Positions 13,355 to 28,133 of a stretch of 64,000 nucleotides of DNA are shown here, one piece after another; position 1 is the stretch's first letter; the number at the start of each line of letters is the position of its first letter. The stretch lies in NCBI RefSeq assembly GCF_048403405.1, contig NZ_CP183129.1; one strand, written 5' to 3'. Position numbers and translations under genes: made by a program. The notes beneath the pieces were generated by a model. The model did no database searches. It was given only the letters and a program-made list of their open reading frames with translations, and was not told the DNA's origin. This stretch comes from Escherichia coli. Lineage in GTDB: Bacteria > Pseudomonadota > Gammaproteobacteria > Enterobacterales > Enterobacteriaceae.

Positions 13355-13385
13355 TGTAGTGATTTTGCACGCAGCACGTACTGTC

Positions 13386-13420
13386 AGAGAAATCAGTGCT
13401 CTGACAGTACGCAAGATCTT
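13386..13420. terminator. bidirectional terminator between yncL and patD
   Basis: Perfect 13-bp stem CGTACTGTCAGAG / CTCTGACAGTACG with 9-nt loop. Confidence 0.7.
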
Positions 13421-24372: not shown

Positions 24373-25545
24373 ATGCGTCTGTTTTCTATTCCTCCACCCA
24401 CGCTACTGGCGGGGTTTCTGGCGGTATTAATTGGCTACGCCAGTTCAGCGGCAATAATCTGGCAAGCAGCGATTGTCGCCGGAGCCACCACTGCACAAAT
24501 CTCTGGCTGGATGACGGCGCTGGGGCTGGCAATGGGCGTCAGTACGCTGGCTCTGACATTATGGTATCGCGTACCTGTTCTCACCGCATGGTCAACGCCT
24601 GGCGCGGCTTTGTTGGTCACCGGATTACAGGGACTAACACTTAACGAAGCCATCGGCGTTTTTATTGTCACCAACGCGTTAATAGTCCTCTGCGGCATAA
24701 CGGGACTCTTTGCTCGTCTGATGCGCATTATTCCGCACTCGCTTGCGGCGGCAATGCTTGCCGGGATTTTATTACGCTTTGGTTTACAGGCGTTTGCCAG
24801 TCTGGATGATCAATTTACGTTGTGTGGCAGTATGTTGCTGGTATGGCTGGCAACCAGGGCCGTTGCGCCGCGCTATGCGGTAATTGCCGCGATGATTATT
24901 GGGATCGTCATCGTTATCGCGCAAGGTGACGTTGTCACAAATGATGTTGTCTTTAAACCCGTTCTCCCCACTTATATTACCCCTGATTTTTCGTTTGCTC
25001 ACAGTCTGAGCGTTGCACTCCCCCTTTTTCTGGTGACGATGGCATCGCAAAACGCACCGGGTATCGCAGCAATGAAAGCTGCCGGGTATTCGGCTCCTGT
25101 TTCGCCGTTGATTGTGTTTACTGGATTGCTGGCGCTTGTTTTTTCCCCTTTCGGCGTTTATTCCGTCGGTATTGCGGCAATCACCGCAGCTATTTGTCAA
25201 AGCCCGGAAGCGCATCCAGATAAAGATCAACGTTGGCTGGCAGCTGCCGTTGCCGGCATTTTTTATTTGCTCGCAGGTCTTTTTGGTAGTGCTATTACCG
25301 GGATGATGGCTGCCCTGCCCGTAAGTTGGATCCAGATGCTGGCAGGTCTGGCGCTGTTAAGTACCATTGGCGGCAGTTTGTATCAGGCGCTGCATAATGA
25401 GCGTGAGCGAGACGCGGCGGTGGTGGCATTTCTGGTAACGGCAAGTGGATTGACGCTGGTCGGGATTGGTTCTGCGTTCTGGGGATTAATTGCCGGAGGC
25501 GTTTGTTACGTGGTGTTGAATTTAATCGCTCACAGAAACCGATAA
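24373..25545 (+). CDS. ydcO: BenE-family inner membrane transporter YdcO
   Basis: Track ORF 24316..25545 trimmed to ATG 24373 (MRLFSIPPPTLLAGFLAVLIGY..), 390 aa, highly hydrophobic. Confidence 0.85.
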   Translation: MRLFSIPPPTLLAGFLAVLIGYASSAAIIWQAAIVAGATTAQISGWMTALGLAMGVSTLALTLWYRVPVLTAWSTPGAALLVTGLQGLTLNEAIGVFIVTNALIVLCGITGLFARLMRIIPHSLAAAMLAGILLRFGLQAFASLDDQFTLCGSMLLVWLATRAVAPRYAVIAAMIIGIVIVIAQGDVVTNDVVFKPVLPTYITPDFSFAHSLSVALPLFLVTMASQNAPGIAAMKAAGYSAPVSPLIVFTGLLALVFSPFGVYSVGIAAITAAICQSPEAHPDKDQRWLAAAVAGIFYLLAGLFGSAITGMMAALPVSWIQMLAGLALLSTIGGSLYQALHNERERDAAVVAFLVTASGLTLVGIGSAFWGLIAGGVCYVVLNLIAHRNR

Positions 25546-25579
25546 TAAAAAGCGCCATCTTACGATGGCGCGGCTGGAA

Positions 25580-26248
25580 TTACTTTTTGTTAACGTCAAA
25601 CATAGTGGCATCGGTCGCCATGTCATCAATAACTTGTTTAATATTTTCGAAAGCCATTGGCGTACTTTCGTTATTCAGGTCTTTACCTTCGCCCTGACGA
25701 ACGACTTTGATAACCGGTTTATTAGTCGCTGCATCAATCAGCTCACCTTCAAAATAGAGGCGAGTATCCATGGTACGGTGGCCTGTAGCCATTTGCGTCC
25801 CCGCAACCACTAATGCAACAGGAACCACTTCATAGAATTGCAGCCCTTCTTTGCTGGTATCTACACCGGTAATGGCCCCACGGAAAATCAGACTACGCGG
25901 CCCAGCGGTGGTAACCAGTGGTTTACGCTGCGCTATCGCTTCTTTCATTTCGGTGTTGGTATAGTTCAAAATTTTATCCAGAACTTTCTGCCCTACCTGG
26001 GTAGAAGGTTTTGGCACCGGATAATAAGTGATTGGGTTCCAGACGATGCTGTCATATTTGCTTTGATCAAAACTCGGGTCTACCCAACGTAAAACAGGTT
26101 TACCTGTTGCTGAGGTTGTTTCTTTTAAATCAGAGTAATTGTTTAAAAAACCAGAATATTTATCTGGCTGGGTGATTTTAGAGGCACAACCAGACAGAGC
26201 CAACAAGCCGCATAAAGCTGCAACTTTCGCAAATGATGTAGTACGCAT
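25580..26248 (-). CDS. ydcL: lipoprotein YdcL
   Basis: 222 aa with lipobox LLALSGC in the signal peptide. Confidence 0.85.
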   Translation of the reverse strand: MRTTSFAKVAALCGLLALSGCASKITQPDKYSGFLNNYSDLKETTSATGKPVLRWVDPSFDQSKYDSIVWNPITYYPVPKPSTQVGQKVLDKILNYTNTEMKEAIAQRKPLVTTAGPRSLIFRGAITGVDTSKEGLQFYEVVPVALVVAGTQMATGHRTMDTRLYFEGELIDAATNKPVIKVVRQGEGKDLNNESTPMAFENIKQVIDDMATDATMFDVNKK

Positions 26249-26550
26249 GAATAGTTTCCTGAGATGATTATATTACTTTCTAAGTTATAGCAAAAAGCGC
26301 CGCTTCGTGTTGTGGCAAAAAAAGTGTTGGTGAAAATAAATTTTTTAGCCCCTTTTCAGACGACATAGTCAATGCCGAAAAAGGGGCTAAGTCAATCATC
26401 AGTAGTTAAATTTCAGTAAGTTAAGCGGCTAAAAAACTTCGACTACTGTGATTGATTTCACATCCCTTCGATAAAAAATATGCTTACCGAAAAGAAGAAC
26501 AGTAAACCATCTCAGCGTGGGGAATTTTCACGCGCTTTGTTCTTACCGGA

Positions 26551-27144
26551 TCATTTTTTACGTGCCAGCATCGTGGCGAAACGCAGTTTAATACGATTAC
26601 CGTTGGCGTCGGTGCGGTGCAGCTCGCCGACGTCTTCATTGTATTTCACCCTCTCCCAGCCTTCGTAATATCGACGTAATTCTCCCTCTTTGAAGGCAAA
26701 CGGGAAGCCGACGGTACATGGATAATCAGCGGTATCCATCGCCGCCACAATCAGGTTGTAACCGCCAGGTTTAGTGCAACGTTGCATATTGGCAATCAGC
26801 CCTGGGATGGTTTTAGCCTCAAGGAACATCAGCACCACAGTCGAAAGAATAAAATCGTATTGCCCATCAAACGTGAGGTTATTCAGATCAACGACCCGGG
26901 TGTGTAAATTATCCAGATTTTCAATGGATTTAATGCGCTCGACGTTGGCGATACTCATGGCATTTTTATCCCATGCGTCAACTTCATAACCATTGGCTGC
27001 CAGGTAAAGACTGTTACGACCATTGCCACAGCCCAGATCCAGCGTTTTACCGGGTTTAACCACTTTCACCGCTTCCAGTACTTCAGAGTGTGTGCGGGTT
27101 AATTCATACTTATCAGTAAAATAGTTTTCGTCACGAATGATCAT
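26551..27144 (-). CDS. tehB: tellurite methyltransferase TehB (SAM-dependent)
   Basis: 197 aa; SAM motif [15 protein letters not shown]; overlaps tehA stop by 4 nt. Confidence 0.92.
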
Positions 27145-28133
27145 TCTTTGTCCTCTGCTTTCATTAAAACGGCGCGCTCGGTTCTGATTAACAATTTTCC
27201 TTGCATCAGAAGCGCAAAAGTACGGATGAGCAGTATTGCAATAATAAAATTGGTAAAGATAAACAGCGGCACCGCCAGCGTATGGAAAAATCCATTATCG
27301 CTGCCACTCCCCAGATGCAAACCGGTGGTTGCCAGTGCAGATACGCCGAACGAGAAACTCCAGAATGAAGCATTAAATGGCTGGGAGAGATACCATGGCA
27401 TCAGACGTAGCATAAACAGCAGTTGCAGCAGCCCATAACCGAAAAGCATTTTCGCCAGCGTGTCACCCTCGCCGCCGTTGACGCTCAGCCAGGCACTACA
27501 GGCCACGAGCGCAGGAGCGAGCTGAATGCCGAGTGATGTCCGCAGCGCCGTGGGTAATTCTCCCGAACTGCGCAGACGCTGCAAGATCACCGGTTCCAGG
27601 CTTAACCATGAGAAAACGCCTGCGCCTAAAAACACCAGACCGGCGTCGGTGTAGCCCAATGCACCACAGGCCATTGCGCTGATAAAGTTGTTGGCAACTG
27701 TCGGCAGATACAGTCCAGGCGTGGTAGCTTCTTCAGGGTGAGATCCGCGCCATAATCCCGCAGTTTGCCATGCGGCATAAGCCAGTTGCACCACGACACC
27801 AAAACTGAACAGGCACACCGCCAGTGGGCGAAACCACGGAACAAAACCAATCGCCACCAGCATCGTCGTTGCCGGAAACAAACTCACAAAACTGCTCAGC
27901 ACTGGATGGCGCACTTCCGCCAGCACGCTATGCGGAAAGCGTATGAGTCGGGTAATAAATGCGCCAGTCAATAATCCCCAGATGATCATCGCCAGAATCA
28001 CCAGCCCATCCCCTAACCAGTGGCTGACCTGCCAAACCTGGCTGGCATAGCGCCAGGCAAATCCCATCCCTATCGTCCCCAACACAATACCAAAATAGCC
28101 TGCCGGCAAATTGAGCACTTTATCGCTCTGCAT
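27141..28133 (-). CDS. tehA: tellurite resistance / C4-dicarboxylate transporter family protein TehA
   Basis: Track ORF 27141..28241 trimmed to ATG 28133 ([27 protein letters not shown]..), 330 aa, polytopic. Confidence 0.9.

Follow-up and report, generated by a model that had tools for sequence, protein, structure and literature searches.

Locus and features of the tehB–ydcL spacer

The window (the whole 64,000-nt stretch analysed, from Escherichia coli assembly GCF_048403405.1, contig NZ_CP183129.1) carries the tellurite-resistance genes tehA and tehB, together with ydcL, on the minus strand, flanked on the plus strand by ydcO and ydcK. Transcription of tehAB runs from right to left, towards ydcL, and tehB and ydcL are separated by a spacer of 302 bp (26550–26249) that contains the hairpin under study, here called HP3 (Table 1). 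This spacer is 100% identical to that of strain 2012C-4221 and 97–100% identical to those of 5393 other complete genomes. No feature was annotated within it in any RefSeq record inspected, K-12 MG1655 included; the K-12 counterpart of the hairpin lies at 1502315–1502360 (U00096.3).

The 82-bp block adjoining ydcL is almost invariant, and its conservation lies far above that of the remaining spacer. Judged from its sequence, the block would be the ydcL promoter and leader, with TGCTATAAC as a putative extended −10 and a TATAAT. A genomic-SELEX peak of RpoS holoenzyme was reported in the tehB>ydcL spacer (Shimada et al. 2017, PMC5493296), which fits a near-invariant block carrying TGCTATAAC. On the far side of ydcL, K-12 has IS609 (insQ/tnpB with a tnpA pseudogene) inserted before ydcO (1503161–1504908); the window strain lacks IS609 and has nothing but a short convergent terminator (25552–25571) between these two genes (compared stretch 25546–25579).

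Table 1. Positions in the window of the genes, RNA structures and sequence elements at the tehB–ydcL junction.
Feature	Position	Strand	Description
tehB	26551–27144	minus	upstream gene; Pfam TehB, E 2.8e-109; stop codon 160 nt 5′ of the hairpin
HP1	26463–26495	minus	13-bp hairpin in the tehB-proximal 3′UTR
CRP-consensus core	26447–26462		TGTGA-N6-TCACA, TGTGATTGATTTCACA; overlaps HP2 and the closing helix
HP2	26392–26455	minus	long imperfect hairpin just upstream of HP3; arms 26455–26442 and 26406–26392
HP3 (hairpin)	26345–26390	minus	RNA on the tehB/ydcL sense strand; 19 bp, 5-nt loop
HP3 outer stem	26390–26378 with 26357–26345	minus	13 bp, including one U-G
HP3 inner stem	26377–26372 with 26366–26361	minus	6 bp, CGGCAU/AUGUCG, G-U pairs included
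HP3 apical loop	26371–26367	minus	5 nt
HP3 bulge	26360–26358	minus	3 nt
Tail after stem	26331–26344	minus	AAAA-TTT-A-TTTT-CA; no terminator-type U-tract directly 3′ of the stem
C-rich, G-poor stretch	26259–26336	minus	78 nt directly downstream of the hairpin; possible rut-like region
Putative ydcL promoter and leader block	26249–26330	minus	82 bp; 94–100% identity across Escherichia including E. albertii
TGCTATAAC	26292–26284	minus	extended −10 with −13C, sigma-S-like; inside the ydcL block
TATAAT	26272–26267	minus	inside the ydcL block
ydcL	25580–26248	minus	downstream gene; DUF3313 lipoprotein; ATG 96 nt 3′ of the hairpin

Structure of the hairpin and its 3′ flank

The hairpin had been noticed in a sequence-only reading as a perfect 12-bp stem in the tehB–ydcL spacer, and this description was exact: the arms TTAGCCCCTTTT (26345–26356) and AAAAGGGGCTAA (26379–26390) are 100% complementary and flank a stretch of 22 nt. 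In the window, three loci carry a perfect 12-bp inverted repeat with a spacer of 3–30 nt, where 200 dinucleotide shuffles gave an expectation of 0.13. One of the other perfect repeats of at least 12 bp, ACGTACTGTCAGAG-N9-CTCTGACAGTACGC at 13376–13411, has no T-run after it and is thus a U-less hairpin as well; the third, ACAAAAGGGAAA-N6-TTTCCCTTTTGT at 56437–56466, is flanked by an A-run and a T-rich tail and looks like a bidirectional terminator. The 22-nt loop proposed for HP3 stands for perfect Watson–Crick pairing only, because in minus-strand RNA 12 of these 22 bases are paired and the apical loop shrinks to the size given in Table 1. Folding (66 nt) gave −25.7 kcal/mol (z −5.9) for the minus strand and −19.3 kcal/mol (z −4.5) for the plus strand.

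It had also been claimed that no T-run flanks the stem on either side, which was incorrect: TTTTTT at 26341–26346 overlaps the left arm, so that the sense RNA consists of the hairpin followed by an A-run and reads hairpin-AAAAAAUUUAUUUU. On the sense strand the A-run is followed 3′ by TTTATTTT (26340–26333), giving hairpin-AAAAAA-UUUAUUUU overall. Like an intrinsic terminator, HP3 offers a stable sense-strand stem-loop that contains G+C and lies after a gene (−25.7 kcal/mol, 160 nt past the tehB stop codon); a U-rich tract of 7–8 nt directly after the stem was found on neither strand. With a d'Aubenton-Carafa-type score, the window tail AAAAUUUAUUUU obtained nT ~0.5 and d ~−60, and the Escherichia hairpins altogether nT 0.1–1.6 and d −50 to −73. 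The terminator consensus scan did not call the hairpin, and the view that it is not a classic terminator was thus borne out by the missing U-tract on both strands, the silent scan and the strongly negative score.

A terminator on the plus strand was rejected, given the T-run on the 5′ side, the weaker fold and an incompatible wobble pattern. The Rfam 15 search of 25000–28000 returned chance matches only, the best overlapping one reaching 17.8 bits against a threshold of 70 (a Tetrahymena snoRNA model). A small open reading frame across the hairpin (39 codons, 26280–26399, minus strand) was likewise discarded; it has no Shine–Dalgarno sequence and is frameshifted in O157:H7, in lineage L005 and in E. 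albertii.

Conservation and alleles in Escherichia

Conservation across strains had been named as a check by the sequence-only reading: of 5426 E. coli genomes 5406 carry the hairpin, as does every Escherichia lineage sampled. It occupies a median of one place per genome (5406 genomes), and matches on plasmids turned out to be mislabelled chromosomes. A REP/BIME, another dispersed repeat, a MITE or a mobile element was rejected, the sequence being single-copy. Like the REP/BIME stabilisers found between cistrons, the hairpin is an extragenic palindrome of a kind able to stall 3′ exonucleases and to mark mRNA ends between co-directional genes; unlike them, it occurs once per genome, lacks the REP consensus and belongs to no repeat family.

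The perfect 12-bp stem of the window is a minority allele (exact in 1668 of the 5406 genomes), the majority being formed by the K-12 allele with CTGA in place of CTAA (exact in 2998 of 5406). CTGA pairs as a U-G wobble in the sense RNA and would leave an A-C mismatch in RNA of the opposite strand. Nine variants were aligned (the E. coli alleles, lineages L003–L006, two of which are labelled Escherichia sp. and two E. coli, and E. albertii), and the outer stem was paired in 93% of the cells of this alignment. One outer-stem pair was seen as UA, UG and CG, and the remaining one-sided changes lead to U-G on the sense strand. Covariation among the nine variants was no better than in shuffles, because the divergence within Escherichia is too low. 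The 18-nt stem core retained 89–100% identity to the window across Escherichia, compared with 60–80% for the tehB-proximal spacer; taken alone, a core conserved in sequence would suit a DNA site too. The inner stem in the form seen in the window is specific to E. coli, and the other lineages have GAC/GUC at this place.

Tandem apical duplications of 21 and 36 nt were found in some E. coli (strains AHB3, L088, and 200164, L089, and the matches H81–H85, with APEC O2-211 among the carriers); the stem is retained in them and the enlarged hairpins fold with −31 and −32 kcal/mol. The pattern resembles slippage at a hairpin. In Escherichia sp. MOD1-EC7003 (L003, 2827–3000) the spacer is only 174 nt long, with ~130 bp deleted relative to window positions 26407–26540. 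This deletion removes HP1, half of HP2 and the CRP-consensus core; the hairpin and the ydcL promoter block are retained.

The same junction in other Enterobacteriaceae

For comparison, 80 ydcL loci from different species were used. The sequence-only reading had missed that the hairpin lies exactly where related genera have the terminator of the upstream gene, and that it is the last of three sense-strand hairpins in a highly structured tehB 3′UTR. A hairpin ending ~100 nt before the ydcL ATG was a constant of the junction in the 80 loci (96–99 nt for the Escherichia hairpin). Loci with an SBP_bac_5 gene upstream (Enterobacter, Klebsiella, Leclercia, Raoultella, Lelliottia) have a canonical terminator here, formed by a G+C stem with a T-run after it. 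With tehB upstream, canonical terminators (stem, then T-run) were found in Yokenella, Pseudenterobacter and Enterobacter sp. ENT03, borderline ones in Trabulsiella (a weaker form) and Kluyvera, and strong hairpins without a U-tract in Citrobacter, Salmonella and Escherichia. The canonical terminators upstream of ydcL have nT values of 2.6–5.6 and end 100–107 nt from the ATG; by the d'Aubenton-Carafa-type score, same-position hairpins of other genera were near or above zero and those of Escherichia strongly negative.

The Escherichia hairpin resembles the canonical intrinsic terminators that precede ydcL in Enterobacter, Klebsiella, Leclercia, Yokenella and others in position, strand and comparable stem stability, and the same role, closing of the upstream transcription unit, is proposed for it. 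It differs from them in lacking the U-tract, having an A-run of 4–6 after the stem instead, and in its long stem (19 bp with a bulge) with A-U-rich segments.

The U-less hairpins directly abut a conserved motif upstream of ydcL (AAAATTGTGC in Citrobacter, AATTTGTGC in Enterobacter, AAAATTTATTTTC in E. coli). As an observation on the flank, a motif of the form AATTTGTGC ... CATTTTTTG(T/C)CACAAC follows right after the terminator or hairpin, ~60–100 nt before the ydcL ATG (L008–L082), and is conserved in many genera irrespective of the upstream gene. It is probably a ydcL regulatory site or an UP-like element.

In Citrobacter and Salmonella the hairpin at this position has another sequence than that of Escherichia and is likewise devoid of a U-tract. 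Ten of its 13 pairs have changed on both sides, and 25 cells show this double change where 6.6 would be expected; the covariation score was reached by none of 500 shuffles, and the signal collapsed in slid registers. Many cells are U-G and G-U and compatible with the sense strand only. These compensatory changes show that RNA-level pairing is under selection at the junction even without a U-tract.

Surroundings in the tehB 3′UTR

On the sense strand the tehB 3′UTR (26325–26497, 173 nt) folds into three consecutive hairpins, of which HP3 is the last, and a closing helix (−59 kcal/mol, z −7.2, well-defined minimum free energy structure); the same 173 nt on the antisense (plus) strand gave −43.3 kcal/mol (z −4.1). 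No compensatory changes were found in the helices of HP1 and HP2. A part of ~130 bp (HP1, the 5′ arm of HP2 and the CRP core) is specific to Escherichia.

The pattern TGTGA-N6-TCACA has a single match in the window, against 0.08 expected. Its half-sites are invariant in the long-spacer lineages (E. coli, L004–L006, E. albertii), the N6 and the flanks being variable; L003 and other genera lack the core. Annotation shows neither a CRP site nor a promoter there, and no literature on it was found. When a promoter of class I or class II was sought on both strands, no placement combined a credible −10 with standard spacing. Either CRP binding or RNA pairing may account for the invariant half-sites. 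Two further elements on the plus strand are consensus matches only: a promoter-like TTCACA-16-TATGCT (26457–26484), whose −35 lies within the CRP core, and ~30 nt after it a terminator-like hairpin GCGTGGGGAATTTTCACGC GCTTTGTTCT with a U-rich tail (26515–26543), antisense to the end of tehB and poorly conserved in other Escherichia.

Transcripts across the junction in K-12

Transcript data were taken from directional RNA-seq assemblies of seven K-12 samples (Li, Dong and Su 2013, PMC3734233). According to the supplements, a unit confined to b1429–b1430 (tehAB) was assembled in the three heat-shock samples, b1429–b1431 units in LB and MOPS 0 h, and b1429–b1432 units in MOPS 2 h and 4 h. Since tehAB–ydcL read-through units exist, the hairpin is no efficient stop. 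Two sense fragments called 'predicted ncRNA' in that study (1500249–1500396 and 1500354–1500400, U00096.2; ncRNAs were called in 51–73% of intergenic regions) were converted with an offset of +1978 to 1502227–1502374 and 1502332–1502378 (U00096.3). Their 3′ boundaries, which are coverage-based and of low resolution, fall 14–18 nt past the stem, at about 26331–26327 of the window; an intrinsic terminator would be expected to leave an RNA 3′ end 7–9 nt past it. The data are taken solely to indicate that the hairpin lies within sense RNA, that coverage tends to end shortly beyond it and that read-through into ydcL depends on conditions. The literature on ydcL and on tehB with CRP, Rho or small RNAs yielded nothing specific beyond the RpoS SELEX study and the assemblies of Li et al.

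Interpretation

The asymmetry of the hairpin fold, the wobbles tolerated on one strand and the asymmetric fold of the whole tehB 3′UTR point to an RNA element of the tehB/ydcL sense strand. Of the two options offered by the sequence-only reading, an RNA element and a protein-binding palindrome, the first is therefore supported by the fold and the wobble pattern, and the second is disfavoured, wobble compatibility being confined to one strand and the Citrobacter/Salmonella hairpin having a different sequence with compensatory changes.

It appears moderately probable to us that the hairpin is the 3′-terminal stem-loop of the tehA–tehB mRNA, a U-less counterpart of an intrinsic terminator in position and probably also in evolution, which acts as a barrier to 3′ exonucleases. 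RNA polymerase would pass the tehB stop codon and the RNA would fold into the 19-bp hairpin, at which, for want of a U-tract, the polymerase would mostly stay on. Transcripts would then continue into ydcL or end further downstream, most likely by the action of Rho on the C-rich, G-poor untranslated stretch. Those ended downstream would be trimmed in the 3′ to 5′ direction by PNPase or RNase II back to the hairpin base, where the hairpin would stop digestion and leave a defined, stable tehAB 3′ end at ~26331–26345; the tehAB mRNA may be stabilised in this way. The C/G ratio of 26336–26259 reaches 1.8, which places it at the 95th percentile of the window or higher, with C making up only 23% of an AT-rich stretch; since the stretch is also the ydcL promoter, its composition may be unrelated to Rho.

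Protective 3′ stem-loops on Rho-dependent transcripts are reportedly a hypothesis of Peters and colleagues from 2012. In E. coli, Rho-dependent transcripts have been described whose steady-state 3′ ends carry stable stem-loops without U-rich tails; these stem-loops were indistinguishable from terminator hairpins and showed C>G enrichment downstream, and it was noted that terminators could change type merely through the downstream uridine content (Dar and Sorek 2018, NAR, PMC6061677). The tehAB hairpin shares with these stem-loops its stability, its location on the sense strand downstream of a coding gene, a folding energy typical of terminator hairpins, the absence of both a U-rich tail and an upstream A-tract, an excess of C over G just downstream and transcript boundaries near its 3′ side. 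It differs from them in that Rho dependence and trimming at tehAB are inferred, in that the boundaries are coarse and lie 14–18 nt past the stem, and in that the C-rich stretch after the hairpin doubles as the ydcL promoter.

The main rival, to which we give a distinctly smaller probability, is that the hairpin is a weak factor-assisted intrinsic terminator or attenuator of the NusA/NusG type, with release in UUUAUUUU and a leakiness that sets the read-through into ydcL; it differs from the 3′-terminal stem-loop only in the point at which polymerase is released. The position shared with the canonical terminators of other genera, the RNA-seq fragments ending just past UUUAUUUU (14–18 nt after the stem) and the occurrence of both tehAB-only and tehAB–ydcL units in published assemblies agree with such a terminator, and inefficient intrinsic terminators backed by Rho have been discussed as transition states (Dar and Sorek, PMC6061677). 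Yet the U-rich stretch begins 5 nt past the stem and is interrupted, the consensus scan did not call it, the tail scores of 0.1–1.6 in Escherichia (d −50 to −73) fall short of the 2.6–5.6 of canonical terminators at the same position, and the Citrobacter tail GA(A/T)AAAATTGTGC has still fewer U's.

We consider it improbable that a discrete, stable RNA of ~150 nt, unannotated and specific to Escherichia, ends at the hairpin; it would be transcribed or processed from the structured tehB 3′UTR (HP2 and HP3), perhaps be linked to the CRP core, and end without a U-tail. Such a 3′UTR-derived or CRP-linked small RNA would accumulate independently of the tehAB mRNA. It would match the longer predicted ncRNA of K-12 (148 nt, sense, 1502227–1502374 in U00096.3), which covers HP2 and HP3 (Li et al., PMC3734233), as well as the low z-score (−7.2) and well-defined fold of the 173-nt region and the restriction to Escherichia of the ~130-bp block with its invariant TGTGA-N6-TCACA. 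Against it, the prior is weak in view of the share of intergenic regions in which that study called ncRNAs, no convincing promoter could be placed by scan and manual inspection, Rfam gave no match, a U-tail for Hfq binding is lacking and HP1 and HP2 have no compensatory changes; the hairpin is also older than the block, being present without it in Citrobacter and L003.

Another improbable reading is that of a decaying terminator relic, now functionless and retained merely through short divergence times, as might be suspected from the non-significant covariation in Escherichia, the duplications within the hairpin in some E. coli lineages and the existence of read-through units. Its stem core, however, is much better conserved than the adjoining spacer, the stem was spared by the duplications and by the 130-bp deletion, and the strong compensatory evolution of the U-less counterpart in Citrobacter and Salmonella implies selection for pairing. 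Least probable is a palindrome acting as duplex DNA, to which a regulator (dimer or tetramer) would bind about −68 to −113 from the inferred ydcL start. In its favour, the half-site core GCCCCTTTT/AAAAGGGGC hardly varies within Escherichia, the palindrome lies upstream of a conserved promoter, and ATTGACT is present twice and invariant. Against it, the changes affect the two strands differently (U-G in the sense RNA, A-C in the other), half-sites of this kind rarely have their centres 34 bp apart, sister genera retain the pairing and not the sequence, and the RNA fold is much better on one strand.

Read as the 3′-terminal stem-loop of the tehAB mRNA, the hairpin would best be counted as an unannotated case of a known mRNA 3′-end structure without a U-tract, involving no new mechanism. 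Its practical value is modest and lies in annotation, as it would mark where the tehAB unit ends and how this unit is insulated from the ydcL promoter of RpoS type. For the family, one syntenic junction presents canonical terminators, borderline ones and U-less hairpins in different genera, and offers a clean comparative example of a point made in the literature on E. coli 3′ ends, namely that terminators can drift between intrinsic and U-tract-less (Rho/exonuclease-type) forms by a change of the tail alone, with selection on pairing persisting after the U-tract has been lost.
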